DNA of 64,000 nt from a virus. The DNA lies in IMG/VR virus record IMGVR_UViG_3300035665_000023, positions 9,018-73,017 of that record. One strand, given 5' to 3'. Of the stretch, positions 4,672 to 41,900 are shown in pieces (the stretch's first letter is position 1; each line of letters opens with the position of its first letter). Under the pieces are notes generated by a model. The model saw only the letters and a list, made by a program, of their open reading frames with translations, searched no databases and was not told the DNA's origin. Made by a program: the position numbers and the translations under genes.

Positions 4672-4818
4672 CGCTCTTTAATTACTTTTTGCACTGGATA
4701 AAAATCAAACAATCCAAATCGGTCGTTCAGGAGTCTAACCCAAAGCAACTACGCCGCATGAAGCGAAATTTGAGTTGCAACACCATCGACCGCACAAACA
4801 TCTTAGCATCACGCTAGC

Positions 4819-5232
4819 CTATCTTCTACGCGGCCAGACATAAAGCCGCTGTGTCGAATACGGGCTCCCATAACCGTACGGATTGTTGATGCTGTCAGAA
4901 CTAAAGGGAGAGCCATACCGCCCATAAGGATTGGAAATCGAGTCCGACGCGTAAGGATTAGAACTCAACTCACCAAGATACCGCCCGCTTCGAGTGTAAA
5001 TCCTCGGCGGGTTGGTCGCATACGGGTTCGTCCAAGAGTAATCGCTGTACGGGCTCCCGTACCGGCTGTACGGATTCATCAGCCCATCTTGACGGTAAGG
5101 ACTTCCGGCACCGTAAGGATTACTCAGCGAATTGTCGTCGTAAGGACCAGCATTCAGATCGCCTAACGAATACTGCCCATACGACAACGACGAAAACAAC
5201 ACTACCAACAAGACACTTAACAGAGATCGCAT
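4819..5232 (-). CDS. Secreted protein with NPYG/GSPYS repeats
   Basis: Signal-peptide-like MRSLLSVLLVVLFSS, then repeated SNPYG/YGSPYS motifs; GGAGG RBS. Confidence 0.75.
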   Translation of the reverse strand: MRSLLSVLLVVLFSSLSYGQYSLGDLNAGPYDDNSLSNPYGAGSPYRQDGLMNPYSRYGSPYSDYSWTNPYATNPPRIYTRSGRYLGELSSNPYASDSISNPYGRYGSPFSSDSINNPYGYGSPYSTQRLYVWPRRR

Positions 5233-6029
5233 AGATCCACCCTCCATACGCATAATCGAAAACCACTACCCAACGTTCGATCAATCTACCAGTATGGACC
5301 CAAGAACGCAACAAGAATGTTGTACGCAACAAAAAACGGCATCGCGGCAGGAGGTAGCGGACGCCCAGGGGAGACGGATCAATTTCCGGCAGGATGCTAA
5401 CAAATTTTGCGGATCATCTAATAAAAAATGGGCGGGCTATTTCCACCACTGGTAGCGATGAGCATTTCCAGTGACTTCCAATCTCTCTACGGCTCCCCCG
5501 CATCTCCGTAGTTCATCTGGGAGCGACCCAGCAAACTCACTCCTCGTCAAACACCAACGAAGAAACCTTGATCCACTCCAACCACCTCAAACCCCGAAAC
5601 CGAACAATACTAATCTTACCAATCCACCACCCACACTCCGATACAATCCGACGACGACCACGCCACCTAGCAGGAATAAAATACTCACTGTCACCAAGAT
5701 ATATCACAACATCTTCGTCAGGTAACCGCATAAAATCACCATATCAGCATGGACCCGATAGAGCAACCGAAAATGGGTGTGCAATGAGAAGGGGCATACG
5801 CTGGGAGTCCCGCCGAGCGGGGTGGGGGGTCTGGGTCGTTTTCCGGCGTCCAATGCTTGTGATCGTCCTTGCGGTCCAGTGTCGGTGCCATCGATCTCAA
5901 CGACAAACACACGTCAAATAGGGTCTCCAGTCCGCAGCGCTCGAAAACACAGGGAAAACACGCAGGAATCACCGCAGAAAACCCCCTTCATCAAGCGTAT
6001 ACCCTAGCAGGCATGGCAATGTGGCAGTC

Positions 6030-7311: not shown

Positions 7312-7758
7312 GTGAAAACCATTTTTGAAACACGTTTCGCGAAAGTTGGCGAAACATCCTCGCATTACCAATCAGCAAGGATTACGTCTTCCGCCGCCGC
7401 TTGCCATTGGGCGAAGCACTGCCTGGGCGAGTATTTCAGCGACAAGCTGGATCAGGAGGAATTCCTGATCGCGATTTTAGATACGAAATTTTTCGTTCGT
7501 CGCGTCGTCCGCATCACTCGCGGGACGTTGGACGCGAGCTTAGTTCACCCCCGCGAAGTCTTTAGGCCCGCAATTGCAGATGCGGCCTCGGCGATTTTGT
7601 GCATCCACAATCATCCCTCAGGAGATCCCACGCCAAGCCCCCAGGACCACCAAATCACCGAGCGCCTGCGAGAGGCTGGGCGAATCTTGGGTATTAACGT
7701 CCTCGATCACATTGTGGTGGGCGATTACGCAGTATCGTTGGCGGAGGTGGTATCGTGA
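7312..7758 (+). CDS. RadC-like JAB/MPN domain protein
   Basis: GTLDASLVHPREVF and HNHPSGDPTPSPQD...VLDHIVVG motifs. Confidence 0.92.
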   Translation: MKTIFETRFAKVGETSSHYQSARITSSAAACHWAKHCLGEYFSDKLDQEEFLIAILDTKFFVRRVVRITRGTLDASLVHPREVFRPAIADAASAILCIHNHPSGDPTPSPQDHQITERLREAGRILGINVLDHIVVGDYAVSLAEVVS

Positions 7759-20429: not shown

Positions 20430-20463
20430 CTCCCATCACTAACACGTATCGATAACAAACCAA

Positions 20464-20539
20464 AACGAGGAGCAGGAGTTGAACCTGCAACGCGGCTCGC
20501 CCGATAGCCGCTGTTTTGCCTGGATTAAACTACCCTCGT
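20464..20539 (-). tRNA. tRNA-like gene with aberrant anticodon loop
   Basis: Acceptor ACGAGGG/TCCTCGT, D arm, T arm GCAGG-TTCAACT-CCTGC; anticodon stem GCGGC/GCCGC closes a 10-nt loop. Confidence 0.55.
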
Positions 20540-20651
20540 TGCCATTACAAAAACCCGAGCATCCACGCTGCCAACGCCAGGATCGAGCACCACACAATCA
20601 ATCCTGACACAACAAACTGAATGATCGGAACCTCTGCAAACTCATCGTCAT

Positions 20652-21002
20652 TCATCGCGCAACACCTTCGTGCTTCGCAATCGCCTCCATAGCTCGCTTC
20701 GTCCAATCCGTAGGAACGTTGACGATGTCTACGCAGTCCACGCTGGTCGAATACTGCATGCAGCCCAATATCAGCTTCAAGCAATACGACAATTCCTCGG
20801 CCTCTCTTGCGTGAGGCGGATCAATCACCTCCTCCGTCACCGTCACCTCCGTTTTGACGACCATTTCGCCACGCAGCACCCGCATCGCTCGAGGTGCCTC
20901 AATACCAAGCTGCACTCGGTTTCCAGAGATCTCCACGACACGGACACTTGCGTCCGGTCCAAGCTTGATCGACTCGCCGTTCTTCCTTGACAAAACCAAC
21001 AT
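20652..21002 (-). CDS. csrA: Carbon storage regulator CsrA with C-terminal extension
   Basis: MLVLSRKNGESIKLG...VQLGIEAP...VLRGE. Confidence 0.9.
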   Translation of the reverse strand: MLVLSRKNGESIKLGPDASVRVVEISGNRVQLGIEAPRAMRVLRGEMVVKTEVTVTEEVIDPPHAREAEELSYCLKLILGCMQYSTSVDCVDIVNVPTDWTKRAMEAIAKHEGVAR

Positions 21003-22247: not shown

Positions 22248-22496
22248 ATGGAAGACATTCTGACGATCGCAGAAGTCGCTGATCGACTTCGCTGTTCTGT
22301 TTCTACCGTGCGGCAGCATATCGCACGCGGTCGGCTTGCTGCCGTCAACCTTGGGACCGGAGGTCACAAGCACTACCGGATCACCGAGTCGGCACTCGCT
22401 GACTTTCTCCAGTCAGCCCCTCAATTGGCAACTTCTCTGCCTCCTGCACCCAAGCTGTCTATCAACACTTCGCGATTCATGAAGCGACTTGGTTGA
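22248..22496 (+). CDS. Excisionase-like HTH DNA-binding protein
   Basis: LTIAEVADRLRCSVSTVRQHIARGRL...YRI (HTH_17-type). Confidence 0.85.
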   Translation: MEDILTIAEVADRLRCSVSTVRQHIARGRLAAVNLGTGGHKHYRITESALADFLQSAPQLATSLPPAPKLSINTSRFMKRLG

Positions 22497-22798
22497 TGAT
22501 AATGCGAACGAAAACACCGATCGAATTACTCGAAGATTTAGCCTACGAAAGCGAGTCGATCGCGGTCAAAGCTAGATTGGCGATTGTCATCGCGCACATT
22601 CAGACTATGGAGCAGCAACGGATCGAAATGCGGTATCGGCAAATCGCGGTGCTGCAAGGAATCAAGCTTTTGGCTTCCTGGCATTATGACCCAGAAGCGA
22701 ATTTCGATGATGTGTCGCCAGACGATCAGGTAGCGCATGTTAATGCAAGGATTGTCTGGGAGTGCGATATGGCGTTGCGAGAACTTGGGGTGAATTAG
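22493..22798 (+). CDS. Hypothetical protein
   Basis: Coupled to the xis-like gene. Confidence 0.6.
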   Translation: MMIMRTKTPIELLEDLAYESESIAVKARLAIVIAHIQTMEQQRIEMRYRQIAVLQGIKLLASWHYDPEANFDDVSPDDQVAHVNARIVWECDMALRELGVN

Positions 22799-22829
22799 GT
22801 AAAGAAATAGGTAAAGAAATAGGTAACAA

Positions 22830-22929
22830 GGATCGGTGGACTAGACGACGGCGTTTTGCGCCGAGAGAGCAGAAACGGTATCTGTAGCCACGTCGGCTGT
22901 CTTTGCAGGTTCGAGTCCTGCCCGATCCA
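22830..22929 (+). ncRNA. tRNA-like element (acceptor and T arm intact, non-canonical D and anticodon arms)
   Basis: GGATCGG/CCGATCC acceptor stem; GCAGG-TTCGAGT-CCTGC T arm. Confidence 0.55.
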
Positions 22930-22975
22930 TTGAGACGAACGCTAATCAATTGTTATGCGGTTTGGAGGTTTGATA

Positions 22976-23179
22976 ATGGCACAATTTACGTACAGAGACA
23001 AGTTGATAATCATGCAGGAGCAAGCCATGTGGATCGTGGCAAACATCTTGCGAGACGAAGCATCATCGGTAGATCACACTTGGCAGGCTCGAATTCGGAA
23101 GCTGTCGGAAGAATCGCGACAAATCGCACAGGAGCTACGCGATCACAACGAACAGTTTGAAGAAGAGGACGACGAGTAA
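22976..23179 (+). CDS. Cassette gene, hypothetical
   Basis: GGAGG RBS. Confidence 0.65.
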   Translation: MAQFTYRDKLIIMQEQAMWIVANILRDEASSVDHTWQARIRKLSEESRQIAQELRDHNEQFEEEDDE

Positions 23180-23331
23180 TCCGCATAACGCACAAAATCA
23201 CCGGGTTGCCGCCGGTGAGTATCGATTGAAAAACAGCCGGACGGCAACTCCGGTGCATTTTTTTGTTATGCCATGCCGAACCATTTAAGGTTACCTACAG
23301 TTGTAGTGCGGCGTTCCTTTGGAGCGATGCC

Positions 23332-23817
23332 ATGCAGTTGTATTTTGACGATCATTATCCAAATGTCCCGAATTACTTTATTCGTCGTTCGGATCTTCAG
23401 CCGCGTCACATGCCGGAGTATTCAGCCGTGTACATCGTTATAGATCGACAACGAAGAGTCGAGTATGTGGGAGAAACCAAGAACCTTCGGCATCGCATAA
23501 GTGAACACGGCGGTTTTTCACACAACAGCGGTATTGCATGGATCAACGTTGACAGTTCGATGTTGGCTTTTACCGAGTGCTGGTTTATTGCGACGCTAAG
23601 ACCTTACAGGAACGGTACGCAACGGAAGTATTTGAAAGATTGCTCACGCTCAGCAGTCGTCGATAGAACGATTCATCGTTTGTGGGTTGTTGGTCGCCAC
23701 GTTCGTCTTTGCGACGGGACGAGCGGTTTTATTGATAGGGTTTACGAGTCGTCGAAGCGCATCGTGGTGAATGGCGTTTCGTATAGAATATGTCAGGCAA
23801 CTGTGACATTGGCATAA
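23332..23817 (+). CDS. Cassette gene, GIY-YIG nuclease-like
   Basis: AVYIV...YVGETKNLRHRISEH. Confidence 0.75.
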   Translation: MQLYFDDHYPNVPNYFIRRSDLQPRHMPEYSAVYIVIDRQRRVEYVGETKNLRHRISEHGGFSHNSGIAWINVDSSMLAFTECWFIATLRPYRNGTQRKYLKDCSRSAVVDRTIHRLWVVGRHVRLCDGTSGFIDRVYESSKRIVVNGVSYRICQATVTLA

Positions 23818-23850
23818 CGCTTGGGTTCACGGGGCCGCGAGGAAAAAACT

Positions 23851-24426
23851 ATGAACAAATCAAACGACGTTGACGCGGCTCCCGTGCAACCCATTGTTAT
23901 GCGTTTCTGTTACGCAGATCCGCCCTACCTTGGATGTGGCAAGAAGCTGTATGGCGACATGCACGAACAGGCAGCAGATTGGGACAACCCCGAGAGGCAT
24001 AGCCAATTGGTAGAGCAATTGTGCGACGAGTTCCCAGACGGTTGGGCAATGTCGTTGCATAGCCCGAGCCTGCGGACGATTCTTCCAATGTGCCCAGAGG
24101 ATTGCCGTGTAGCAGCATGGGTGAAACCATTCGCAGTGTTCAAAGCGAACGTAACGGTAGCGTATGCGTGGGAACCAGTCATCTTCCGTGGCGGTCGGAA
24201 ACGACCGCGAACGATGCCAACTGTTAGAGATTGGGTCAGCGAGTGCATTACGTTGAAGAAGGGTTGCCCTGGGGCAAAACCCGAGGGGTTTAGTATGTGG
24301 CTGTTCGACCTGTTGAACATGGAACCGCAAGACGATTTCGTTGATATGTTTCCCGGCAGCGGGAGCGTGCAAAAGGCGTGGGACAAGTTTCGCCACACGC
24401 CGATGCTGCCACTGGAATACGCATAA
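23851..24426 (+). CDS. Cassette gene, amino-type DNA methyltransferase-like
   Basis: YADPPY and DMFPGSG motifs; start codon lies inside the attC loop. Confidence 0.75.
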   Translation: MNKSNDVDAAPVQPIVMRFCYADPPYLGCGKKLYGDMHEQAADWDNPERHSQLVEQLCDEFPDGWAMSLHSPSLRTILPMCPEDCRVAAWVKPFAVFKANVTVAYAWEPVIFRGGRKRPRTMPTVRDWVSECITLKKGCPGAKPEGFSMWLFDLLNMEPQDDFVDMFPGSGSVQKAWDKFRHTPMLPLEYA

Positions 24427-24529
24427 CGCTAGCGGTAACCGAATCGCCGCCAAGAGACTCGGCTTGAGAACTAGGTGACCGGCGACTTCGGTTCACCGCT
24501 TTGTTATCCCAAAGTTTAGAAGGTGAGCC

Positions 24530-24748
24530 GTGGCTGGTTGGCAACCGATTGAAACCGCACCGAAAGACGGCACAAAGATTTTGGGATGCGATAGTAATGG
24601 TGAACTTGCCGTTGTGCATTGGGATCAAAATTTAGTTCGTGGCTTGAAGGGTTTTCAGATTGGAATTGGCGGAGTGAATTGGAATTGGTTGCAACATTAT
24701 TTTATACCAGTAATGTGGCAACCATTGCCTAATTCACCTGATGGATAA
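24530..24748 (+). CDS. Cassette gene, DUF551-like
   Basis: WQPIETAPKDGT...WQPLP. Confidence 0.8.
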   Translation: MAGWQPIETAPKDGTKILGCDSNGELAVVHWDQNLVRGLKGFQIGIGGVNWNWLQHYFIPVMWQPLPNSPDG

Positions 24749-24789
24749 CGCTCGGATTCACCGAGCCGAAAGGAAAGAGGTAAACGAGA

Positions 24790-25047
24790 ATGAGCGATAC
24801 GAATGAGGCTTCGGTGCAATCCGTTGTTCGTCGGCTTTTGGCTAACGACCAATTGAGGAAGATCTACGATGTTGACGAAGATACGTTGTGGGAGTGCTTG
24901 CGAGTTCTTGCTCGCATGGTGCGGGACAAGACGATTGATGCAGACAAGGCATTGAAGGCCGAAGCAGAGCGAAGTCGTCCACGGTCTGTAGGAAATCAGT
25001 TGTTTGAGGCCGCAATGCGAGATTTTGAGCGAGACGGTATTCGTTAG
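24790..25047 (+). CDS. Cassette gene, hypothetical
   Basis: RBS and ATG inside the attC loop. Confidence 0.65.
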   Translation: MSDTNEASVQSVVRRLLANDQLRKIYDVDEDTLWECLRVLARMVRDKTIDADKALKAEAERSRPRSVGNQLFEAAMRDFERDGIR

Positions 25048-25094
25048 GTCGGACGAACGGTAGCCGTCAGCGGGCGGCGAAAGGAAGATTAACC

Positions 25095-25433
25095 ATGTCG
25101 AACGACTCTGCCGCCGCTCCGTTGCACGGCGTTGTTCTACTGCCATGTCCCTTTTGCGGAGGCGAGGCAGTAGAGTGCTATCAACGTGACGACCTTGACG
25201 ATTGGAAGATTGAGTGCAGTGGGTGTGGTGCAGTATCGTGTCCAGATGGGATGCGGTACGACAAGCATTTGGCAATTAAAGATTGGAACACGCGAATCGT
25301 CAAAGGCGTGCGAACAGTGTTCAGTTACGAAATGTTCGGCAAGATCGGATTCGTATGGATGGCAAGAACCGGTGGGGAAATGTACGGCCCATGCTTGTCG
25401 CTAGACGAATTGTACTCCGATTTAGGTCAGTAG
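25095..25433 (+). CDS. Cassette gene, Lar-family restriction alleviation protein
   Basis: LPCPFCGG...IECSGCG...AIKDWNTR. Confidence 0.8.
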   Translation: MSNDSAAAPLHGVVLLPCPFCGGEAVECYQRDDLDDWKIECSGCGAVSCPDGMRYDKHLAIKDWNTRIVKGVRTVFSYEMFGKIGFVWMARTGGEMYGPCLSLDELYSDLGQ

Positions 25434-25537
25434 AACGCTGGCAATCACGGGGCCGCGACCGTGAAAGCCAGCCATCAGAAAAGACGTTGACGCGGCTCCC
25501 GTGCATTGCTTTGTTCGTCGTCCTTGGAGGTTTGATT

Positions 25538-25801
25538 ATGAGAGTCGCAGAGTTGATTGAAGAGTTGAAGAAGTTACCACCAGAGTCGGAAGTCATCCTC
25601 CAGAAAGACGCGGAAGGTAATGGGTACAGTCCATTGTACAAAGTGGATGGTAATGCCATTTACATAGAGGATTTGGCATGGAGTGGCAAAGTCGTTTCGA
25701 CGGAGTGGTCGGCCTGCGATGCATGTTACGAGTCAGAGGAAGAGTGGGAAGCATTTAAGGCGTCGAATCCGCGTTGCTGTGTTTTGGCACCAGTGAACTA
25801 G
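25538..25801 (+). CDS. Cassette gene, hypothetical
   Basis: GGAGG RBS; MRVAELIEELKKLP...DAEGNGYSPL. Confidence 0.7.
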   Translation: MRVAELIEELKKLPPESEVILQKDAEGNGYSPLYKVDGNAIYIEDLAWSGKVVSTEWSACDACYESEEEWEAFKASNPRCCVLAPVN

Positions 25802-25847
25802 GTAGGACGAACGCTGGCGATGACCCAGCCCGAAAGGAGATTTCAAA

Positions 25848-26144
25848 ATGTCAGAAACCAGTAATGAGGGCTTGGGTCCATCGTATCGTTCTACGTCCAA
25901 GCGGTGTGAGTTTGTTTATGAAGTCGAAACAGCACTGCGTTCCGTAACCCATGAATGTCGATTGGCTAATGCCGTAGAAATCAGTTACGAGATTCGAGAT
26001 GGCGAAGGTTTTATTCGGATCGTGTCGGTAGAAGATAAAGCGGATGCGAAAGCGTATCGTGCGTTGAGAAAATTGTTTAGCCGTCCCGACCAGATGAGAT
26101 TGGACATCGCGCCAGTCTGGGATTCGCGAAATATCGGGCAGTAG
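25848..26144 (+). CDS. Cassette gene, hypothetical
   Basis: AAGGAG and ATG inside the attC loop. Confidence 0.65.
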   Translation: MSETSNEGLGPSYRSTSKRCEFVYEVETALRSVTHECRLANAVEISYEIRDGEGFIRIVSVEDKADAKAYRALRKLFSRPDQMRLDIAPVWDSRNIGQ

Positions 26145-26183
26145 AACGCACAGGATAACCCAGTGCGAGAAAGGAAAGTAGCA

Positions 26184-26459
26184 ATGACAGAAGACACTAA
26201 CGAGCACTTGGGTTCATCCGATTGTTCGTCGGCTTTTAATGTGCTCTCGCGAATGCTTGAATCTGGATGTGACTTGCATAAGCAATCGGGCATTTGCTGG
26301 ATACATGATTGGGCTGGTCGATGTTTAGCAGAAGCAAAGACGCTTACCGACATGCGAGAACAATTGGAGCGATTCGACATCGAAGCACACGAACGTCGCT
26401 ACAAGGCTAGGTGCGATTGGTATGCAAAAAACAGGAACAAGCTTTTAGGTCGGCAGTAA
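26184..26459 (+). CDS. Cassette gene, hypothetical
   Basis: AAGGA and ATG inside the attC loop. Confidence 0.65.
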   Translation: MTEDTNEHLGSSDCSSAFNVLSRMLESGCDLHKQSGICWIHDWAGRCLAEAKTLTDMREQLERFDIEAHERRYKARCDWYAKNRNKLLGRQ

Positions 26460-26567
26460 GTCCGACGAACAAGTATTATATGGAATTGACCATATCACCG
26501 TGTTATGTGGAATTCAATATATCCTGGGTTTGCGAGTCTTTGCACGACTCGCAGGGACCGGAAACGC

Positions 26568-26783
26568 TGGCACCAAAACGGCACCAAACGAGTGATTTTG
26601 ATACGATTTCCACAGCAATGGCACCATTGAAAAGCAGCAAAAACGCAGGAAATTGCGAGGATTTTTGCGTTGACATCGTTGAGGTCACAGATTCGAGTTC
26701 TGTACCGCCCACTAGGGAAAACGCTGAGAAAACGAACAAAACGACTGAACGATAAATGGTGCCCGGCACCAAAATTGGCACCA
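26568..26783 (+). other. attP: tRNA-Val(GAC) 3'-half core (26668-26712) with GGCACCA arm-type repeats on both sides
   Basis: CG-TTGACAT-CG anticodon loop through the T arm ACAGA-TTCGAGT-TCTGT to ACCGCCCA; no tRNA 5' half; five GGCACCA copies flank it; adjacent to the integrase. Confidence 0.8.
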
Positions 26784-26796
26784 GCGATTTTCAGAT

Positions 26797-27873
26797 TTGT
26801 TTGAGTTGCTGACCATACGTGTCAATCGCATGGCAAAATCTAGGCTCATGCGTAAACCATTTTTTCGTAAAGCAAGGCAGTGCTGGTACGTCAAGGATGA
26901 TCAAGGGCACTTCATACGTCTGGATCCAGACGAGAAGAAGGCGTTCGCGATTTGGGAACGTCTGCGGAACATTGCGGACTACCAGCACCATGACGCAACG
27001 CTGGAGGCGATCTGCGAGGCGTTCCTAAAGCACCATGAGCCGGAGCTGAGTAAGGTTAGGTTTGCTGATTTGACTTGGATCCTAGAGGAATTCGCTTTGT
27101 GGTTCGGCCCGACCCGACTGGCTCGAGAAGTTGGCAAGGCAGATGTGTTGCGATGGATGCGGTCGGAGCGGGATTTGCGAGGTGGTCGAGGTGTTTGGTC
27201 GGCAGCTCGGCAACGGGACGCTGGGCACACGGTAAAGCGAGTGCTGGACTGGGCAATCAGGCGGCAATACTTGCCCTGGTCGGATGTAACGGAGATGCGG
27301 CTCCCAAGCCCAGAACCTCGGGACGAAATGATTTGCTACGCAGATCACTGCCGTCTAATCGGTGGGTGCAAGGCACGAAAATCACGTCCGTTTCGATTGG
27401 TGCTAATTGCACTGAGGTTATCGGGGGCACGGCCCGCACAAGTGCGGGAGTTGACGGCTAGCAACGTGATCGGGGATAGTTGGGTGTTTCGTCGGCACAA
27501 GACAAGTGCGAAGACGGGTAAGCCGTTGGTGGTTCGCTGTGGGCCTTGCCTGCAGACCCTGACGCGGATATTGACTCACGCTAGACCCAGCGGCCCAATG
27601 CTTCTATCGGCCCATCGCAAGCCTTGGCCGAAGGATGGGATCGTTCTTCGTTTTCGTCGCCTTCGAGAAGCGGTTGGGCTAGACGGGGTCACGGCCTATT
27701 CGTATCGGCACACCTACGCGACAGATGCACTGCAGGCGGGTATCTCGCTGCCGACCGTTGCAGCGTTGTTGGGACATGTCAACCCGACGATGGTTTCGCG
27801 AGTGTATGGGCACCTGGAAAAGCGATCGGATCACCTGAGTGATGCGGTCGCTAAAATCAAACGGGCTGAGTGA
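26797..27873 (+). CDS. int: Tyrosine integrase (true start probably 26830 or 26848)
   Basis: SGARP, HKT, YSYRHTYAT, LLGH and VYGH catalytic motifs; N-terminal arm-binding-like KPFFRKARQCWYV. Confidence 0.92.
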   Translation: MFELLTIRVNRMAKSRLMRKPFFRKARQCWYVKDDQGHFIRLDPDEKKAFAIWERLRNIADYQHHDATLEAICEAFLKHHEPELSKVRFADLTWILEEFALWFGPTRLAREVGKADVLRWMRSERDLRGGRGVWSAARQRDAGHTVKRVLDWAIRRQYLPWSDVTEMRLPSPEPRDEMICYADHCRLIGGCKARKSRPFRLVLIALRLSGARPAQVRELTASNVIGDSWVFRRHKTSAKTGKPLVVRCGPCLQTLTRILTHARPSGPMLLSAHRKPWPKDGIVLRFRRLREAVGLDGVTAYSYRHTYATDALQAGISLPTVAALLGHVNPTMVSRVYGHLEKRSDHLSDAVAKIKRAE

Positions 27874-29907: not shown

Positions 29908-32900
29908 CTATTTCCGTTCCAGCACTTTTCGCAGCTGCCGTAGTCTCTGCACGTAGCTTTCCCTCAAGACGTAGTTATTGCCACGCATTTCGTAAGCAGA
30001 ACCGTACTGTCGCTTGTAATAATCCAGCAGCATGAGACGAGCATCGTTAAAGTCGAGTCCCATCGTGCGGAACTTCTCAATGGCTTTATCTCGCTCGGAA
30101 ACCGATTTCTGGAACGACTCGTCGCTCTTGTGTGTTTTCCTCTGCGGATTGGCTAGCGCGGCATACACGACAGCTTGTTTCTTAGCTTCCCTTTGGTCGA
30201 ACATCTGCTTGCGTTGTTTATCCGTCAGCAAGTCCTTGTACCCAAAGTCTGGAGTGTTGTAATCCATCGCTTCGAGGTCTTTTTCAAACTGTTTCTTTCG
30301 GTCTTCTTCTGATGCCTTTTTGTACTTAGACCGCGATCCGTGCGTTGAAACTGACACACCGAAGAAAGCTTCCAATGCCGCGAGAGTACCTCGCTTAAGA
30401 CCGAGTTCGCTCTCTGCTGCGTATATCTCTCGATAGGTCAGTGGAGTAATGCGACTCCCAACGATGTTGCGATAAATCGCTGTGGGGTCGTCCTTGTCCG
30501 CTATCACGTTGCCAACCGCATCTCGTCCGCTAGCCCATTCCAAAATTGCCGATGGAGCTGTTCCTAACTTGTATCGACCGTAGTTGATAATAAAGTCTGC
30601 TGCGGTCTTTCCACCGTACTGAACGTCATCTCCATAAATCGACTTGATCTCACCCTCGCTCGTCTTCATTTTGCCCGTCAATATTCTTGAGGCAAGGACA
30701 ATGGCTGGCATCAAACCACCTTCGTCTTTGAATCGAGTCTCGCCGATCTTCATTGCAAGAGCATCGCTCGACCGCAAGTCGAATTCAAAGGTTGGCATTT
30801 CTTCTTCGTCGTCGCCTGCAAGCAAGCGATACGCTACGTAAGCAACCGCCATTTTCGCTGTGTGACCAACCATTGCCTGAATGTACAGCTTGGCCAATGC
30901 GACCCGCATACCCCTGTCAGCATTCCATTGCCCAATCCATTGCGGAGTCACCAACTGGAACGGAACAATGAAGTCAGCTTGGATTCGCGACCACGTCCAG
31001 CGTCTAGCGAGGAACAACCAATCAAGCCATGGATTGCCACCCTTCAAGCCAGTCCCTCGTCCGCTGAATATGTTGGCAATCCTTCCTGTCTCTTTGATGT
31101 CGTCTTCCGTCCATCCCGTGTTGACCTTAAAAAACTCTCTGGCGGCAAGAGTGTCTCGCTTCTGAATGTCGTACATGTCTGCCTTCATGATGTTGGAGAA
31201 CGTGCGGTTGCCACGCTCTGCCATCGCATACAGCTTTGCCCATGTGCGGAGGGGGAGCAAAAGTTTTGTTTCTGTATTCTCGAGCCACCGAATGATCGCC
31301 GATTGATACAGTTCTTCTAATTTCGCCTGAGGACCAGTGACCTGCGTAAAGTCAACTTTCGCCAGTTCGTATTCTTTTGCATTGGGCCTGCTCTTCAGTC
31401 CATCTGCCGATTCCAACGCGAGTCGCTGGCTAAACACTGCAGGTATTGCTTCCATCAGTGCGTAAAAAGCTTTCATCGGCTGCGAATACGTGTAGAAGAA
31501 GCCTTGCCGCAGAACAAAAGACATTTCTAAGCCGAGCATTAGCGTCTTTGGAATCAACGAAGTGGCCTCAAGAATCCCTTGGCCAATCCACTGTCCCGTG
31601 TTCCATGTCGCTCGCTTTGCCTTTTCGATGGCAATCATCGCGTCATATTGCACCTCCTCGATTTCCATGTTCTTTTCGAGGATGGCTTTTTCCGTGATAG
31701 TACGCTTCTTCAAGGGCACCGGAATACGACCAGCCTTTGCTTCCTCAAGTCGCCTCTGCCAAAACGCTAGCCGCCTTTCTTGCGCCTTGCGATAACGTTG
31801 CCAATACTTCAATTCCTCCGTAGCTTGATACACGGGATTTGCTTCTAGCGCTACTTTCCGCAGTTGCCTCAAAGATCGCAACTCGGCCATGAGTTCTTCT
31901 TTTCGCTCCGAAGTCAACTCTGAGTTTTTCGCGGCAGGAGCCCATGTGCCATCCTCAAGAGCTTTAACGTCAGCCTTGACCGCACTTATCTGCCGCTCAA
32001 GCATTCGCACCGAAGCATCGAGTCGTTGCTCTTCAGTGAGTGGCTTGCGTCCCTTCTTGGGCTTCGTGGGTGGGAAGATCTTTTCGTAGTCAGCCTTAAG
32101 CTTGTCTCTCACCCTACGCTTCTGTTCGAGTTGGCTACGAAGATCCAACAAATCCTCATCTGGCTCGAGAGGTGTCTTTTCATCGACTGGTTTGACAAGT
32201 TTCGTCCTGCTCTTTACCGCCTCGTCCAGAGCAGCGATGTCCTTATCAAGCATCTCCAGCCTGTTTTTTGCTGCCGTTTTTGCTGTTGTCAGAGCAGACT
32301 TCAGTTGACCCTCCTTCGATTCAGCGGGAACCGGAAGCGTCTTCTTTAGCTTGTTGAATTGCGAAATCAACTCTCGCTCAATGCTGTCAGGTGTTGCCCT
32401 CTCCTGGCCAGTTGCTTTTGGAAGAAGACCCTTCTCTCGTAGGCGGCGAGCCACTTCTTCTGGAGTAACGCCTTTATTGAGCCACTCTTCACTTTGCTTG
32501 ATAGCGTTAATCGTGTCTTCGATTTTAAGTGATTGCCTAGCCTTGCCGCGAATCGCCCGAATGATGACTTCGACTGGCTCTGTGTTTAGCGATTGCCAGA
32601 CACCGTAATCGGACATCGCCTGCATTGTTTCGTATTTCGATATCCCAGGCACTTCGGTTGACAGTTGTTCGTACACAACATCAACGACATCCTTCCAATT
32701 TTCTTCCTCAGCGCCGTAACCCAACTCAACCGCTGCCCGCATCAACTCCTTCGCTCTTGCTCCAAGTTCTGAATCCGTAGGGTTGTCGCCAATTGGAGAT
32801 TCAGGTTTGTTCTTTGAAATGCTTTCGTTCCATGCGTCTCGAATCGCTTGTATTTGCTCTGGAGAAGCATTGCGAAGGTTAGCTTTGATCTGCGCTTCTA

Positions 32901-35900
32901 CCTCCAAAATGGAGCTGACGCCAGCCTCTCGTAATGCGGAAACGACATTGTTCGCTGCAGCTTTGATGTCGTTTGGTTGCCGACTTGGTGAGTAGCGGAT
33001 GTCTGGATTGTTTGGGTCGAACGTGCCTCGGTTGCCGGTGGCGGATTTGATCTGGCTCTTATCTCGAACCCAAATTACGTCACGCCCCCGTACCTGCCAC
33101 TTTCCACCATCCTTGTCCCATTCGTTAACTTTCAAATAAACAGGCAGGACTTTCTCGCCATACTGTGCAGCCAACTCCTTGTCGATCGCAAACCAAATCA
33201 TCCCATGCATCGGTGTATCTTCAAACACATCAAACTCAGCATTTGTACCATGGTAAACAACCAATGGCTTCCCATCAGCATCGACTACCTTGCTGTCGCC
33301 GAACCACTTCTTGAACTCAGGGGTATCTGTTTGAGGTCGAAGATTGCGACCAGCCGCAGGACGATTGCCACCGCTCCACAGATTCTGAAACACCGAAAAC
33401 GCATCGGCAACCTTTTTAACTACCGTAGCACGCTTAGTCCCCAGCTTGGGCTTTTCTGGTTCGGGTTGCGCCGCCGCTTCCGCCTTCTTCCTAGCGATGG
33501 TCTCTTTTGCCAGTTCCTCTACAAGTTTTGCGTTCTGCGCTTCTAGCTTTTTGATGCGGTCAGCCAATTGAGCATACTCTTGTAGTTGCGATTCGGTTGG
33601 TCGCTGCTGCACTTCTCGCAAATGTCGCCGAACAAGCCCAGCCACAGAAAAATCAGATGCCAACTCAACTTGGCGAGAAACACCCGTCTGACCCCAAATA
33701 CTCCCAGCTTTCTCCGAAGCTTCAGTGGCTGTCAGTATTTCATCAAGAACACTTTCGCCAGCTTGGCGGCGGTTTTCAAGATCACGGATATACCTGCCTA
33801 AAACGGCTTCTTCAACACGATCTATAGCTCTTGGGTTGTTAGCCAGCTCCTCTGCAAGACGTGCTGGATAACCTGGGGTCTTTGCAATTCGCCTAGCAGC
33901 TTCCGCCTGCCATTGATCAACCGATTCTCGCTCTGGCATCACCCGTTCACCAAGACCAGCCAAAGCCCGCAATTCGTTCGTCTTTACGTTTTTTGTACCA
34001 GTTGTTTCATCACTTGCGGGCGGAGACGGTTCTCTAACTTGCGGCTTAATCAGCCCTTCCTCTTCGAGACGCTTGTACAACCCAGCAAGGATGTCGTCCT
34101 TTGGTTTTCGCCTTGGTGAGTAGCGAACGTCAGGCAGCGTCTCGTCAAATCGCTTGCTCAACGGGACGACATTTCCAGAGTCATCGTAAGTTACAGCATC
34201 AGATGATTTGATTTGTGATGGGGTAAATGCAACGTAAGCGTCGAAGTCAGACGTTCCGTCAGTATCTTTGATAATTACCCCGTCGTAGCCCATCTTTTGA
34301 ATTGCCTTGACGAGAGTTCCATCGGGATCCTCTTCCTTGTCAAACAACTCCCACGAAGCGCCCTTGCGATCAAGCCATCTCGAGTTGACACCTTTAGAAA
34401 CCAACGTGTTAAACTGAGCGTCAGTTATGCCGTTCCTCCAATCCAGCAGCTCACCAAATACACGGAACTTACGTACGCTTCCGCCTTTTCTTCCTCCCTG
34501 CTCTCGATATCGAGACGCCGCCTCTTCGTCGGTCGTAAAAAACGCGGCGTTCCTGCTTACCTCGTACGAACCGAATACAGTGCTGTTGAATCCCTTGCTA
34601 GGAATTTGAAACTCGTAGAAGTTGGAGTGCGGGCTACCGTGGTACAAAACTGGTGACACTCCACCAGCAACTTCGCCAGCACCTGCAGCCGCTGCATCAA
34701 CCATACGCTGTGCCTTCGCCATGTCGCCCTGGTCTACTGCGGCAAGATACTTGGCGTCATTATTGCGACCTGGGGAGTAACGATAGTCCTCTCGTCGTCC
34801 CAGCACAGGATTCTTAGCCAATACCATACCGCCAACTTGCACCACTTCTTCTGCCGATACCACTGGGGTCTGCGTATCTTTATCATAGAAGTAAGTGTGA
34901 CGGATGGGATTCATCCCAATCTCAACCCACCGATCCTTGTTAGTCTCTGCCAGTTTGTAGGCTTGCTGCGCCGTCATCGGCACATACTCGCCTCGCATGG
35001 TAGCGATCGTGGACTTGGGCTTACCAGCGGCGATATTCAGAGCGGCGTTTTCGGTGACCCCGAAAGTAACATTTCTCAATACAGATGTCGGAGTATAGGC
35101 GACAACTCGACCGGCACTTCCTTTGTTCAGGTCTGGGCGAGGTTCATGCAAAGAGACTACCCAAACGTTTTCGTCATCGTAGGCAGGAATATCCAGTCGA
35201 GTTTCAAGCAATCTTCCTTTGGCAATGTCTTCAGGATTTTGGATTAGATCTCTCTTTAGTCGATCTCCAGCTTTGCGATCACCTAATCCGCGAAGCATAT
35301 CTTCCTTGCTTGCTGGAATCGGCACCTCGTCAAACTTGCGAAGAGGCATTCGCATGTCCACGATCCTCTGATACTGATTACGATCGATCAGACCAGCTTT
35401 CAGATCCTGTGCAGCTTTCGTGATCTCGGGATCACGTTTTCTCTTTGCTTGACGACTTGGTGAGTAGCGAACACCTTCATCGCCCGTCTCCTCCATGTCT
35501 GCGGCACGACCCTCAGTCCATGTCCACTCAGGCATCAAGCCGATTTTGTTTTCTGCAAATACCGTGTCTAGTACGCTGGCGGTTTTATTTTTTTCTGCGT
35601 ATGGACCGAAGTTCAACCAGGAGTTTTGACCGCGAGTCTCGCTAGTCATTGCACCTATGGCGGGTCCGTAGTACAACCGAACATGCGCCTGCCACGCGTT
35701 TTCCTCGCCACGGGCTCTAAAGCCAGCCCCCTCCATGCTGTGCCCAAATGCGTCGTGTACAGCGCGAAACAAATCGTTAGCGGCGACTGGGTGAGAAACC
35801 CCTTTTTGATCCTTCCACCTCAACCCAGTATCGGCAAGCATTGGGTTGTTTGCTAATTCAGTAGCCGTAATGCCTTCAGTTCCGTATCCAGCATATGTGC

Positions 35901-38900
35901 CGTACACAGCCATCTTCTTGTTTTGACGCAAGTCACGCACGGCAGAAGATGGATTGCCGTCATACGGATCCGTGTCGCCATCATAGAAAGTAAACGTGTA
36001 TCCAGCCTTTACCAACGCATCGTACTGCGACTTCGTTTGACGAATCATGTCGTCATACGCCTCTTTGACCGCTGGGTCATTTGGCGAATGCTGCATCTCC
36101 TCAAACGCTTGCGCAATACGCTTAGCCCTCTCTTCGTCTACCCGGACGTATTTGGCTTGCCGTTTGAGATTGATGCCGTTATCGCGAGCGTACTGCTCTG
36201 CGGCGTCAACTATCCCTGGGTCTGGTCCTGACGCCCCTTGAACAGATGGTGAACCTTCAAGCGGCGTATAGCTTCGGCCCTGATCCCGTCCTCTTCCGTC
36301 TCCGGTCGATTCGGATCGTCGTCCTGGGGAGTATCTTTGGCCTGAGTCTTTGATGGGGGCTGCTGTGAATTCGGTGTTCCAGCCTTGCTCTCTGGCGAAC
36401 TTTCTTGTTGCGGAAATGACGGCTTGGCGTACATTGTCACTCCTTCTTTGTAGATCGGGTCGTCCGGTCCCGCCGATCCGAGATGTGTATTCTTCCCCAT
36501 TTGGATTGCTTTGCCAGCTGTTAGAGGTTGCGTTGTATTCGTTGCCTTCGCTGCGGAAGGATTTTGTTGTCGTAGTGCCACCAAGGAAGCTTGGATTGCT
36601 TCCATGGAGAGCGCTGACTACCTTTTCCATTCTACTGTGGAAGTCTAGGTTATCAATGGAGAAGTTGAGTATTCTGGCTCCATTCGGCATGAAGGCTGGA
36701 GCGAGATCCGTATCTTTCCCGAATTCCCGAAGCATGGCGTCGTAGAGATCTTTGAATTCCGACCCTTTCCATGCCCTATTACCTGTGATTTCAAACCCAT
36801 TTTCAAGAGCAGGATCGCTCGAATAAACAGGTAAATGCCAGTAGACACCATCTTGAGACAGGACATATCCCAAGATGTTGGCGTACAAATCCAGTTTCTT
36901 CCTGTACTCCTCAGTGATGGTCTTGACGCCACCATTGTTCTCCAGCATGACCTCAAACTTCGATTGCGAACCAGCACCGATGTCACCCTGCCATGCAGAG
37001 AATCCGGTGATTGTGACTGGAACATCGAGTCCTACAGCCTTCGCAATCCAATCGCCGTTCTTGAACAGGACGTCAGTAATCCTCTTCAGATATTCTTTTT
37101 TTACGGCATAACTTGCATTATGAATCTCTGGAATTATGTCAAGCGTCTTAGATGGAATAGCTTCCCATGAAAGTTGAGAATCTTTTATTCCACGACTAAC
37201 CAGCTTGCCGTAAACTTCCTGCATTGCCGGGGAAATTTCAAGATTGACTACCGGATCCGAACTTGTCTTGTTATCAATCGATTTGTATATCTTCCTGAGC
37301 CAGCTAACAACTTTTTCAAACACAGACCTAAGAGTTTTTGATGTAAATTTCCCGCCCTTAATGTATTTAAGCAGACCGTTGGCAAACTTTTCTTCGGCCT
37401 CAGTTGTCCAGTTGCCATCAACTACACCAGACCATTTCATTGCAACGTCAATGTCAGCGTCAGTAATCCCCTCTCGCATGTCTTTTGGAATGCTTTTATC
37501 GAACAGGAACATCCTTGCTACGTGCCCTAGTTCGTGAATCCCATCTGCAACCGTTGGCTTGTTAAACGCACGCATTAGTGCTATGCCAGAATCAGTAAGT
37601 TCTACTGACGCCTTAACAGAAGCAGTCAAAGACCTCAATACCCCGTCAGATGGATAGGAAGTATCAGTAGAAACTCCCATCATCCCGTAGAACAACTTTT
37701 CCATGTCCCACATCATCTCTTGAACGATGGCTGGTTCAACACCCAACGTTTCTGCGACCTGAACCCACGCATCTTCGAGAATTTGCCTCTTGATCCTGCC
37801 TAGCTGATTGGTGTGCTTCCAAGGAACTCCAGTGTTTGGCTCTCTGAAGTAGCGAGACATCGTTCTGGCGACCCACATGTCCTTGGTAATCGTCTTAAGT
37901 TTTTGCCATCGATTCAGGATATAAGAGCCTTGCTTTGGATTGTCGCCCAATGCAAACGCGCCAACTATTTTTAGATTTGGATCATTTGGGTTCTTAAGGT
38001 CTCTTTTGAGATACTCGTGAACCTTAAGTTTTTTTGCTGCCTTATCTCCGATGACCGAAACAATCTCGGCCCATGTGTGCTCAGACTCCATCCACTTTAT
38101 GGCTTTTGCTAGTCCCGATTTACCTCCGCCGAAGTGATCGACAAGCTTGCTAAAACTTCTTGCTGACGCCAAATTGAATGTTCTGGAGATTTTCTTGAAC
38201 TTACCAGGAACAAGATTTGGCTCGTTAGGAATTTTTTTGCCGCTAGAAGTTACTCGACTCGACTCAAAAGTGATCTTACCTCTCGGAGTAACATACGTCG
38301 GCTTACGTGGACGCTGCCCATTCATGTCTCTAGGAGCGTTGTAATCTGTCTTCCAGACATGCTTCGGATTGGATGTCATGCCCGTTAGCGTTCCGTGTAA
38401 CATCCACTCTTTCAGGACCATTAATCCAATCAACGTATCTACACTTGGTATAGCGTTGGCAGATGAAAACGAACCCATAATGTGAAGCAGCTTAACTTCA
38501 TCATCAGTAAGTTTATCCCTACCCTCCGCAGCCATTTTAGCTGCAATGTCCTTGTCTCTTTTAGCCCATTTACTCAACCATGGGTTCGCCCTATCGATAA
38601 TGTCAGTGGTATAAAAACTGATATATGATCGGTTGAGTTTTTTCCAAGCGTTAATTTCTAATAGCGTGTGCTTTACGATGGCATCAACGGCAGCTTGACG
38701 CCCATCGGATGTGTTAAAGTCAACACCTTCTGGAACAACCTTGTTTTGATTGGCATACTCACCAATCCACGCCACCGCAGACTTTAATGTCTTTTGAACA
38801 GCAACCGGTTCTTCACCAGAGAGAATTTTGTGGACTTGGAATAAAGCGTTTTCCGCAGGCATTCCGCCTTTGACTAGCTGTATCCGTGACTTGTCCAATC

Positions 38901-41900
38901 CCATTGCCTCGGCAATAGAACTAACAGCAGTGGCAACATCCTTAGGGACGCCGAAAACTTTCTCGATAACACCTGGAGTAAAAGCTTTTTCAGAAAACTC
39001 TTCTTTGCCTCTTGCAGGTGCCGCACGACGACCACCCTTGCCCTTCATGGCAACGTTGTTTCGCTTCATCGCCCTTTCGATCGCTTGGCGTGTCTGCCCA
39101 GCAAGCGTGTTTGGGTTGGTCACTCCTGGCTCAGCAAACCGCAACACTCGTCGCACCCAACGACCGATTCTTGCTAGTAATCCTGGCTTTGCCTTGCCGA
39201 GGTCGTTCCAGAACTTGAAGTAAGCCGCCCTGTCTTCTAGGTAGCGAGACAAGCCCTCGTCGTTTAGCAAGTCCTCGTCTTCGAGCAGACGTTCGTAGTA
39301 TCCGGCATCTACTTCTTTCATGTCTGCGAGATACGCGACTTTAGCCTTGCCTAGCCCAACCGAATCGTTTTTGCTGACCCAGTTGTAGAGCGATCTCCAT
39401 GCCTTGGGTGACGACCGCTTGATTGCATGGAACATTTCATGGGCAAACAAACCCCATGTCATTGCCTTCTCTGGGCGACCCTCTTTCTTCAGAAGGCTAT
39501 CCCATTTTTCTACATAGTTCCGAACAAGCCAAATAGTGCGAGAGTTTGGAATAAACAGCCCAGGTACTCCTTGGTCGGGACTACCTTCGACCAGCCGAAG
39601 CGTAATGCCGATCTTATTGAGTATCTGCTTCTGCTTACGCTCGTCTTCGGTAAAGTCTTTGGACGGGATCTCTTTCCCTTCCGGCTTTTTGGGGGGACTT
39701 GCGTCTTTATCGGATTCACCGCGAGGAGCTGCTTGACGTTTCTTCTTTCTAGATGGTTTTGCTTTTGCAGCAGCGGTTTCGAGATACTCTCTGATTGTTG
39801 GTTGGCTATTAAGCTTATCTGATATTTCGTCAACAATATCTTCTCGTTCAGTAGCCTTAACATCCAACTCTCTCGCCAAGTCTTGCAGGTCTTCCTTATT
39901 TAGACTGCGAAGGTAAGTCTTTGCTGGCGACTCCTTCGTCTCCTGCTTGGCTTTAACTTCGGGCTGCGCAGGAGCGATTTCTGGCTTATCTTCTTGCTGT
40001 GAAGCGGCTTTGTCAAAATCTTCTGCTGTTACAAGATCGCTTGTCGGCTCCGTTCCTTTCCATGCATACACTGGCGTACCATCTGGTCGATACATTTGCG
40101 TAAGAAGCCCCGCATCAACCATTGGTCGCAACGAACGTGCAACCCACCCACGCGAATCTTTGCCAGGCAATCTGTCAGATATTTCATTCGCTGCCAGCCA
40201 ACGGTTTTCTGGCATTTTGTTTCGAAACGTGAACGCAAAAGACTTCTTGCCAGCGTCTTCTGGTCTCATCTCGCCAGACTGCACCATCGCTTCCGTAAAT
40301 TGCTCTGGGGTTGGCTTTTTTTGTTTTCCTGCAGCTTTTGGAGGTTGCTCAGCGGGTTGTTTTTTAGAAGGAGCCTTTTTCTTAACCGACCTTGGCTTTG
40401 GCAATTCCTTCTGACCAGCAAAGTCATACGTGCCAGCAATCATGTCCGCCAGATACGTGTCTACCTTTGGAACACTTAGCGGCATTAGCAAACCAACCAC
40501 CTCGCCGTTAACAGCGTAAACTACCGGCGTGGTTATTTCATTACCTTTCTTCGCCTCTCCGTATATCGTTGCTTTTGGGTGTCGCTTCAATATCGTGTCG
40601 TGATAAGCCTTGCTCAAAAGAACATAATCGCCGCTATCGTTTTTTAGCATGACTTGTCTTTCAGACATGTCTCCGCCGCGATAACCGACAACAGTCATTT
40701 CATTGCCTGGTTTAATGGTGTTTCTGGTGGGAGCGATAACAGACTCTACCTTCACCTCCCTGCCTATGCCTTCAATTCCAGATCTTTTCTTCGATGAAGC
40801 TAATATTGCGTCCCTGTCTTTATCGGGAGCCTTGATTAGCACTCGACCATCTGTGTAATAACCAGTAGCCTTCAGAGTTGCTGCAAGACTTTCACCCTGA
40901 GCCACATTCCACAAGCCAGCCAGCTTTTCATTTGAGTACGACATGCTCCCAGAGTCAGTCTGGGTGAACCTCTTGTCATCGTCTTTGTCAAATGCGCCTT
41001 CAAAAACACGTTCCGCTATGTCTTTTGCCTTTTTCTGGTCCGAAATGTTAGACGCCTCAAAGTCCCATGATTTCGAACCAGCTTGCCTCACGGTCCAAGT
41101 GCCGCTATCCTTGGACTTCTCAATGAGTAACACGCGGTCGCCTCGAGACGCTCGAATTGTCTGAGCAACTCCTGAAGCGTTTTGCTTAATGCTTGTGTAC
41201 TCTGTGGGCATAGGCTCTGCAGAAGGTTCTGGAAAAACAGGCGACGGCGCTTCGTCCGCCGCCTGCTCCTCCATAGGACTTATTTGCCCTTCGGACGGCC
41301 TTTGCCCCCCTTCGGTTTGCACTTGCACATTAGGATCACCTCCCCCCTTGGTTCCACGAGCATCTTGCACCTCCTCACGTTGACGATCTCCCGACACCGC
41401 ATCAGGAGACTCGGAAATCTTTTGACTTCCATTCGGAACAATCCACTCCGATTCATCAGCATCAAAAAGACCAAGAGATTTTACCTCTAAACCAACGGCA
41501 CCTTCCTTGGTGTAAACCGTCCCGCCGTACTCCTTGGCCCATTTCTCTGCTTGCTTTTTATCAGATGTCCAGCCCAGGTACGGACTGTCGTTTTTACTGG
41601 GGTCTTTATTATCGCCTCTGTACAAGGTCGGCGCAGCTTTGGATCGTTCGGCAACGCCATCCACAAACGCCCTAGCGAGTTCAACGCCCTCTTTGACGTT
41701 GCCGCCTTCGACATTCCCGCCTTCCAAGAAAACTTTCAGGTATCGCTTTAGATTTGAGGGACTGCCCTTCCATGTTCTTATAGCTTCTTTTAGCTTCTCG
41801 CTAACTTCAGGTTGGAAAGAAGGCGTTGGCGCTGACACCGCGTCAACAGGCGTGGGCTCAATTGGATTCTGTACAGGAAACGGATCGCTTGACTGCGGTG

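Follow-up and report, generated by a model that had tools for sequence, protein, structure and literature searches.

Integrons are known as bacterial devices. Recent work, in the part available, describes them as stockpiles of anti-phage defences. In phages, the accessible text of Qi et al. (2023; PMC9892861) reports 17 clusters of attC sites lacking an integron integrase (CALINs, minimum two sites) and DNA methyltransferases among their cargo. The same text states that IntI1 recombined five of the six phage attC sites tested, and suggests that phages gain counter-defence genes through such clusters. Here we describe an array of attC sites at positions 22934–26470 of a 64,000-nucleotide window (bases 9018–73017 of the 73,017-bp IMG/VR virus record IMGVR_UViG_3300035665_000023, rated 100% complete). 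The array consists of a mini-site (S0), eight hairpins (S1–S8) and a terminal heptamer (S9), with nine small plus-strand genes between them. It fits the cluster definition given in the part seen of the preprint by Darracq et al., namely at least two attC sites with no IntI nearby. We consider it likely that the region is an integrase-less integron platform of the type found in Pirellulaceae, the cassettes of which are exchanged by a host IntI acting in trans. Several of its features had been put forward in an original prediction made from the sequence alone. Loci compared are given L-numbers and their source genomes or records G-numbers; R1 is a covariance model built from the window's eight attC sites only.

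The original prediction described eight hairpins of one geometry and 89–100 bp in length. DNA folding upheld the shared geometry, but the measured lengths of S1–S8 were 89–91 nt. On the plus strand all eight sites showed, in order, a heptamer ending in AAC, 6 nt, 3 bp, 6 bp, stem, loop and stem, followed in the 3′ arm by a bulged T, 6 bp, a bulged C, 3 bp, 5 nt and a heptamer starting with GTT. Two sites varied slightly, with the T-bulge register of S3 shifted by one and a third bulge in S1. The AAC and GTT, which belong to the inverse core sites (R and L boxes) that bound the imperfect hairpin of an integron attC, were invariant and the 6-nt and 5-nt spacers unpaired; the 5′ arm of every plus-strand hairpin, which holds the AAC, was unbroken, and the extrahelical T and C lay in the 3′ arm. 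By folding, the plus strand was more stable than the minus strand in seven of the eight sites. In the eight-site alignment, pairing reached 98.4% of 128 cells (75.7% in shuffles) and fell to 26–45% when the 3′ partners were slid. Compensatory changes were present at 10 of 13 long-helix pairs, and the covariation score was reached by none of 500 shuffles. A search of the whole 73,017-bp record with R1 returned exactly S1–S8, all on the plus strand.

Neighbouring cores in an integron array are expected to be complementary because the crossover splits the attC. The heptamer complementarity that had been noted between neighbouring sites was present at all nine window junctions, with the counts as first given: each 3′ heptamer was exactly complementary to the 5′ heptamer that opens the following site. 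Among the window sites, only S1 and S2 had complementary ends of their own. This chain rule held for 55 of 65 adjacent pairs across the phage arrays (15% for random pairs) and for 48 of 70 across host arrays (7% for random pairs). The placing of translation signals was likewise as predicted. The Shine-Dalgarno (SD) sequence and ATG of the next gene were found inside the loop in five sites (S2, S4, S5, S7 and S8), and five stop codons lay inside the next 5′ heptamer (TAA in GCATAAC twice and in GGATAAC, TAG in GTAGAAC twice), with the others 3–4 nt before it.

In the available part of Nivina et al. (2016; PMC5027507), the attC bottom strand carries AAC in R′ and is cut between A and C, its extrahelical bases lie across from the AAC in the other arm, and the site also has an unpaired central spacer and a terminal loop that varies. 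The plus-strand fold fits this definition, and the phage plus strand would therefore be the bottom strand. Pirellulaceae genomes were reached via relatives of the phage integrase, and 98 of the 201 searched encode an IntI above the TIGR02249 cut-off of 265. Both 20-kb flanks of eight host intI genes (16 flanks) were scanned with R1, giving 83 matches. All but two of these (81/83) fell in six integrons (L040, L042, L043, L046, L047 and L050), with intI genes of 397–424 bits on TIGR02249. All 81 were upstream of intI and on its coding strand, and there was no match in the six opposite flanks of the same genes. The two stray matches (40.8 and 23.9 bits) were downstream of two further intI genes, off this pattern.

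Host attC sites beside intI matched the phage sites in geometry and, for the most part, in the bulged T and C. The claim of a canonical bottom-strand pattern with C for the classical G thus held, as R1 finds host arrays and the host sites too mostly carry C. Because the R1 matches lie upstream of intI and on its strand, S1–S8 are identified, at the level of sequence and fold, as true integron attC sites, with the window plus strand as the recombinogenic bottom strand. By the same comparison, the polarity of the phage array towards its attI-like right end matches that of host arrays towards attI and intI. R1 also gave at least 128 attC matches in Pirellulaceae bacterium SH501 (G001, CP197422.1; 150 of 1818 candidates were scored) and 8 in the Pirellulaceae contig L077. 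The SH501 matches include large arrays at, for example, 1.98–2.00, 2.29–2.32, 2.73–2.75 and 3.28–3.31 Mb; despite these, a search of that genome for IntI gave none above the cut-off.

The IMG/VR contigs L010 and L011 encode integrases 90–91% identical to that of the window by alignment (89–90% by tblastn). Both share the attP region of the window, with conservation beginning at position 26569, and at the corresponding place they hold six and four attC sites. No cassette body was common to the window and L010 or L011. Cassette content is therefore not fixed across related phages, closely similar integrases being accompanied by wholly different cassettes. Searches by hairpin-family pattern and by xis gave 17 more viral loci with 68 R1 matches. 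Among 63 cassette units there were seven pairs with the same gene body in different contexts, and in six of these the upstream attC was 95–99% identical and the downstream attC 63–72%. S4 with gene 5 recurred in L055 (97%) and L069 (90%) beside different neighbours. Its homology started at xxxx/AAC and ended at GACGAA/C (slash, breakpoint), which places the breaks inside AAC triplets.

Since shared genes retain their upstream attC but not their downstream one, the unit appears to be an attC plus the gene downstream of it, with its own ribosome-binding site, ATG and N-terminus. The comparison defines the putative cassette as C, attC hairpin, GTTNNNN, gene, NNNNAA, in which the gene follows its own attC and is encoded by the bottom strand. 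It also indicates that such cassettes are exchanged in nature, with junctions in the AAC of the plus-strand 5′ heptamer, the canonical bottom-strand cleavage point. The original prediction had held that shuffling would swap N-termini and translation signals; this did not stand, as six of seven pairs keep the gene with its upstream attC. Crossover at G/TT of the plus strand was rejected as the main route on the same six of seven shared-cassette comparisons and kept as a rare route (one of seven).

Cassette genes usually lie on the attC top strand, upstream of their attC, and are expressed from the cassette promoter Pc. The phage genes lay on the bottom strand and downstream. The longest ORF (open reading frame) between sites was opposite the R1 strand in hosts (27/27 in L043, 8/9 in L046, 7/8 in L040, 6/9 in L042 and 4/8 in L047) and on the R1 strand in phages (6/7 in the window, 4/5 in L010 and 2/3 in L011). 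In a strict test we counted ATG-initiated ORFs that filled the interval and stopped between −12 and +7 nt relative to the next site. L053, L056 and L063, which are duplicates or near-identical phages, were left out of the counts, and L062, L065 and L067 were also left out of the strict test. Of the 57 phage-array intervals, 46 held a bottom-strand ORF and one a top-strand ORF; of the 62 host-array intervals, none held a bottom-strand ORF and 26 held a top-strand ORF. Both tests confirmed that the phage genes run antisense to those of normal cassettes.

Of the 46 phage bottom-strand ORFs, 22 started in the loop and 24 just after the attC, so that in about half of the phage-array genes the SD, the ATG and roughly the first 13–15 codons are inside the attC loop and 3′ arm. 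Host genes started 6–30 nt after the preceding attC and often stopped inside their own heptamer. Differences between copies of shared cassettes fell at codon positions 3 : 1 : 2 of the plus frame in the ratio 68 : 22 : 14, a third-position bias suggesting that the plus-strand ORFs are under selection. The available part of Nivina et al. (PMC5027507) states that cassettes facing the promoter were never observed, which concerns whole inverted cassettes; in the phage arrays, by contrast, attC polarity is normal and the gene alone is reversed.

The phage arrays end in a lone heptamer complementary to the 3′ heptamer of the last attC, exactly in the window and L011 and with one mismatch in L010. 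A box follows the terminal heptamer in the window, in L010, in L055 and in the host locus L077, and the same box is found deeper in the attI-like region of L057, L059 and L062. In L077 the eight attC matches are followed by the terminal heptamer, 11 nt, GGAATTTACCATAT and, 184 nt later, an intI of 409.7 bits (4660–5739); of the seven intervals of this array, three carry cassettes of the phage type, in which the start lies in the loop. When the L077 cassettes were compared with the phage loci there was no gene body in common and a hairpin match only, of 102 nt at 86%. A second attI-like type was seen at L011 9644–9760, at L054 4160–4270 and at equivalent positions in L060 and L066. It has the layout AAC-N5-ATTC(A/T)CC-N11-inverted copy with two or three direct repeats behind it, and the attI beside the true intI of host locus L040 is laid out in the same way.

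We regard 26464–26527, which the original prediction did not include and which has its box and 11-nt spacing in common with the region beside intI in L077, as an attI-like site and a candidate attI. S0 was considered as an attI at the array start and rejected on polarity, on the host comparison and on the position of the box, at 26482, at the other end. A blastn-short comparison for a common attI among 12 further intI loci (L023–L034) gave one 14-nt match, to L034, and the upstream repeats all differed. Box matches in L015 and L027 were at positions that are not meaningful and were treated as chance.

The window integrase scored 23 bits on the IntI model TIGR02249, against a cut-off of 265, and matched model positions 253–304 only. 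No IntI above the cut-off was found in 11 phage records (the window record and 10 related ones, with records rated 100%, 100% and 95% complete among the 11). As the phage integrase is not an IntI and these records hold none, we infer that a host IntI acts in trans, which agrees with the enzyme named as likely in the original prediction. In three Pirellulaceae genomes, tRNA-Val genes matched the attP core with 93% identity over 46 nt, and no full tRNA was found at 26569–26800. In related phages xis was 74–80% identical, and all sequence from xis to attP differed. In G205 (100% complete) the arrays were ~9 kb from the only tyrosine recombinase, and no tyrosine recombinase was found in G204 (88% complete), an array-bearing phage.

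On this reading the platform would lie between xis and attP-int and comprise an attI-like site, eight full and one degenerate attC sites and nine cassettes, carried by a temperate phage of Pirellulaceae that integrates at tRNA-Val. Host IntI would excise and insert cassettes in trans, by attC × attC and attC × attI recombination, during phage replication or in the prophage. The cassettes would be transcribed from the xis side, co-directionally with int, and because of this direction only bottom-strand genes would be useful to the phage. Translation signals placed in an unpaired, purine-rich loop would stay accessible in a structured mRNA. The cargo would be fast-turnover accessory genes, some of them acting against host defence (Lar, methyltransferases, nucleases).

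More tentatively, and with slightly less than even confidence, we suggest that phages with a host-matching attI use the host IntI on a separate 'mirror' pool, in which the attC loop provides the ribosome-binding site, the start and N-terminal coding sequence. IntI fixes attC polarity, so that gene orientation would split one recombination system into two expression pools. If this is true, host cassettes would be silent in the phage and phage cassettes silent in the host integron, as in G217. The in-frame fusion of one hairpin family to many unrelated genes would then give a view on cassette genesis, a question that is open for integrons.

That the array is a fossil, a piece of a host integron (attI and cassettes) captured by illegitimate recombination or aberrant excision and now inert, would be in keeping with the lack of IntI in the 11 phage records, with the degenerate S0, and with the position of the array beside attP, where host DNA could be captured. 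We nevertheless think this unlikely. Backbones with 89–91% identical integrases carry completely different cassettes, and one cassette is present in three contigs, each time beside other neighbours and with clean breaks at AAC. The phage cassettes form a class of their own (bottom-strand in 46/57 intervals against 0/62 in hosts), the third-position bias indicates selection on the plus frame, and full pairing is kept in all eight hairpins via compensatory changes.

A recombinase of the phage itself, either the integrase at 26830–27873 or, for example, the serine invertase detected in the record, might instead shuffle the cassettes, the likeness to attC being due to mimicry or shared ancestry. 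The integrase does sit at the position of intI, with array, attI-like site and int on the same strand, and in SH501 the two loci found with relatives of it (L012 and L015) both have attC arrays no more than a few kb away, although with so many attC matches in that genome the proximity may be chance. But the integrase has a conserved attP of its own, with arm repeats and a tRNA-Val core, and its match to the IntI model is confined to the short segment given above. The distance in G205 and the lack of a tyrosine recombinase in G204 also speak against it, and the same attC type and attI box serve true IntI in hosts; we judge this explanation very unlikely. SD sequences and start codons in loops, and hairpins between all genes, could suggest that the hairpins act mainly at the level of RNA or transcription (as terminators, translational operators or repetitive extragenic palindromic (REP)-like repeats) rather than as recombination sites. 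This we hold to be extremely improbable. An RNA role may be compatible with recombination, but it explains neither the chain rule (9/9 in the window and 55/65 overall), nor the cassette boundaries inside AAC, nor the arrays that R1 detects beside intI.

Several observations weigh against an integron platform served by a host IntI. Recombination was not seen directly, and the enzyme is inferred. G217, the source of L077 and so of the one host integron with a matching attI box, matches the phage attP core at only 78%, so that it need not be the host of this phage, and no host with both the tRNA-Val target and the window attI type was identified. Of 401 Pirellulaceae genomes searched, only one had the phage-type hairpin pattern, and exchange with host integrons may therefore be rare. 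In the seventh of the shared-body pairs (L011 8802–9250 and L055, reverse strand) the same body stands with two unrelated hairpins; its ends match GTTATCG...CGATAAC, which puts the junction at the 3′ heptamer. One hairpin family is fused in frame to >10 unrelated gene bodies, and many unrelated bodies follow hairpins of the families encoding MSETNEASVQSVV or M.ED.NEHLGSSDCS. Hairpins and bodies have thus been joined at the other core site as well, which could stem from cassette genesis or from rare top-strand recombination. The canonical pathway alone accounts for neither the hairpin exchange nor the multi-body hairpin family.

Contigs from lake-water metagenomes also bear on exchange. In four of the 24 runs that hold the region, assembled contigs joined 5′ heptamers as S0 to S1, S0 to S3, S0 to S8, S1 to S4, S1 to S8, S5 to S8 and S7 to S9; the S0 joints linked 22936/22937 to the 5′ heptamers of S1, S3 and S8. 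The sides of these seven joints were 23–33 letters long (21–33 overall), and repeats or other organisms are a possible source, which tells against them; because the contig sides are short, the joints lend weak support to exchange. Joints that did not link two 5′ heptamers (for example 23267 to 24747, 23271 to 26491 and 24828 to 26503), with sides of 21–30 letters, were not used. Contig depth differed greatly between cassettes and backbone and cannot rank the parts.

The identity of the record as a phage also counts among the weaker points, as it comes from the IMG/VR record, a weak terminase PHROG (E 1e-9), replication genes and the xis-attP-int module. A Pfam search of ten large phage proteins gave no match, and PHROGs gave almost nothing on eight structural-size proteins. 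A PHROG scan of 40 proteins of the record returned the one weak terminase match together with replication and recombination genes. One of these 40 proteins matched both a PHROG DNA invertase family (E 1.2e-54) and phrog_95, an integrase family, so that the record also encodes a serine recombinase. A 4707-aa ORF at 29908–44031 (minus strand) is followed by a 1203-aa ORF, and the large neighbours scanned, including the 1203-aa ORF, had no PHROG match.

The cargo had been predicted to be of phage type, and part of this was retained. Lar and the GIY-YIG nuclease exceeded their Pfam cut-offs, whereas the methyltransferase fell below its own (Table 1) and DUF551, proposed for gene 4, gave no match even at E ≤ 5. 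A DPPY motif is present in the translation of gene 3. Six cassette proteins of the window had no family. Across the phage arrays about 7 of 63 cassette proteins matched any Pfam family, namely GIY-YIG (2), N6_N4_Mtase, Lar, crAss001_48 and three weak others, and most were ORFans; PHROGs added several methyltransferase families. The anti-defence role put forward in the original prediction is plausible for a few cassette proteins, and Lar and the DNA methyltransferases would fit it.

The features of the region are collected in Table 1. The ATG of the integrase was fixed by comparison with L011. The tRNA-like element at the distal end of the array has an acceptor stem and a T arm with a long insert, and ARAGORN makes no call there. 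A similar element was found in L011 (~7608–7740), at a different position relative to the first gene, and L010 is without one. Between the stop of the ORF at 22496–22798 and this element, 22800–22826 holds two tandem copies of GGTAAAGAAATA and a partial third. Further upstream, ARAGORN reports a tRNA at 20463–20540 (minus strand) with the four-letter anticodon cggg and without an amino-acid assignment (Rfam tRNA 38.6 bits, which exceeds the gathering score); this could be a phage tRNA whose anticodon loop has 8 nt. At 20652–21002 (minus strand) there is a gene for a 116-aa protein, the first 48 residues of which match CsrA (56 bits, cut-off 73), and which looks like a phage-borne carbon storage regulator-like gene.

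Table 1. Coordinates of the array and its setting in the window (bit scores of attC sites are for R1; slash, breakpoint).
Feature	Positions	Strand	Description
xis	22248–22496	+	Excisionase-type helix-turn-helix gene; PHROG excisionase families, E 4.6e-8; conserved backbone gene to the left of the variable region
tRNA-like element	22830–22929	+	~100 nt; adjoins distal end of array; Rfam tRNA 28.1 bits, gathering score 29
S0, degenerate attC	22934–22958	+	GACGAAC-11 nt-GTTATGC, no hairpin; 5′ heptamer is the attI-distal array boundary
Cassette gene 1	22976–23179	+	67 aa, no family
attC S1	23183–23271	+ (bottom strand)	78.3 bits
Cassette gene 2	23332–23817	+	GIY-YIG nuclease domain, PF01541 25 bits (cut-off 22.6); start after attC
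attC S2	23812–23902	+	87.7 bits; SD and ATG of gene 3 in loop
Cassette gene 3	23851–24426	+	191 aa; possible N6-adenine methyltransferase fragment; PF02086 17.1 bits, below cut-off 22
attC S3	24421–24509	+	76.7 bits
Cassette gene 4	24530–24748	+	72 aa, GTG start, no family
attC S4	24743–24832	+	SD and ATG of gene 5 in loop; 'MSETNEAS' hairpin family
Cassette gene 5	24790–25047	+	85 aa; S4 and gene recur in two other phage contigs
attC S5	25052–25140	+	SD and ATG of gene 6 in loop
Cassette gene 6	25095–25433	+	Lar-like restriction alleviation protein; PF14354 44.8 bits (over cut-off); phrog_599 E 1.1e-11
attC S6	25430–25519	+	Folded, found by R1
Cassette gene 7	25538–25801	+	87 aa; weak PHROGs of unknown function
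attC S7	25806–25894	+	SD and ATG of gene 8 in loop
Cassette gene 8	25848–26144	+	98 aa
attC S8	26141–26230	+	SD and ATG of gene 9 in loop
Cassette gene 9	26184–26459	+	91 aa
attI-like site	26464–26527	+	S9 terminal heptamer GACGAA/C (26464–26470), 11 nt, box GGAATTGACCATAT, second similar box GGAATTCAATATAT
attP region	26569–26800	+	Repeated GGCACCA arm-type motifs; 46-nt core ~26668–26713 equals 3′ half of tRNA-Val(GAC)
Phage tyrosine integrase	26830–27873	+	347 aa; PF00589 50.7 bits; phrog_1 E 4.5e-30

The finding would show the other side of the contest between phages and integron-borne defences: a phage platform without an enzyme of its own, which turns over accessory genes via what looks like the host integrase. 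Its mirror orientation breaks the rule that cassette genes are read with the attC top strand, and its sites suggest that translation signals and coding sequence can be part of an attC. The arrays offer substrates for the study of strand choice by non-proteobacterial IntI, of translation within a recombination site and of cassette genesis, and the ~60 small phage ORFans are good candidates for counter-defence screens.

Bottom-strand cassette arrays, start codons in attC loops and attI in phages were each absent from the literature searched, most subscription journals and supplements lying outside it, and the text available of Qi et al. (2023) contains neither 'Planctomyc-' nor 'antisense' nor 'start codon'. 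Phage attC clusters are thus already published, and the mirror orientation, the starts in attC loops and the attI appear to be new. Like the clusters of Qi et al., as far as the accessible text describes them, the arrays here are attC arrays without intI in phages and have methyltransferases in their cargo; unlike them, they have up to ~11 sites, all genes on the bottom strand, half of them starting in loops, an attI-like site, and cassette turnover between near-identical backbones. The part seen of Loot et al. (bioRxiv 10.1101/2022.09.11.507474) reports that IntI inserts cassettes at genomic GTT outside att sites. This is a possible route of entry for the first cassette into a phage, needing host IntI only, but unlike the insertions described there the phage array ends in a structured attI-like site in common with a host integron.

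With the chromosomal integrons of Pirellulaceae the phage arrays share the bulged T and C, the AACG...TTGTT flanks, the chain rule, stops in the heptamer, polarity towards attI and one attI box family. The Pirellulaceae integrons have intI and top-strand genes, whereas the phage has no intI and bottom-strand genes. Some toxin-antitoxin cassettes of sedentary chromosomal integrons are reportedly reverse-oriented. In the available part of Richard et al. (2024; PMC13108822), toxin-antitoxin cassettes of such integrons bear promoters, and like these the phage cassettes would not depend on Pc for expression. Toxin-antitoxin cassettes, however, are single exceptions in top-strand arrays, while in the phage it is the whole array, from a pool of at least 46 bottom-strand cassettes, and the translation signals are built into the attC itself.

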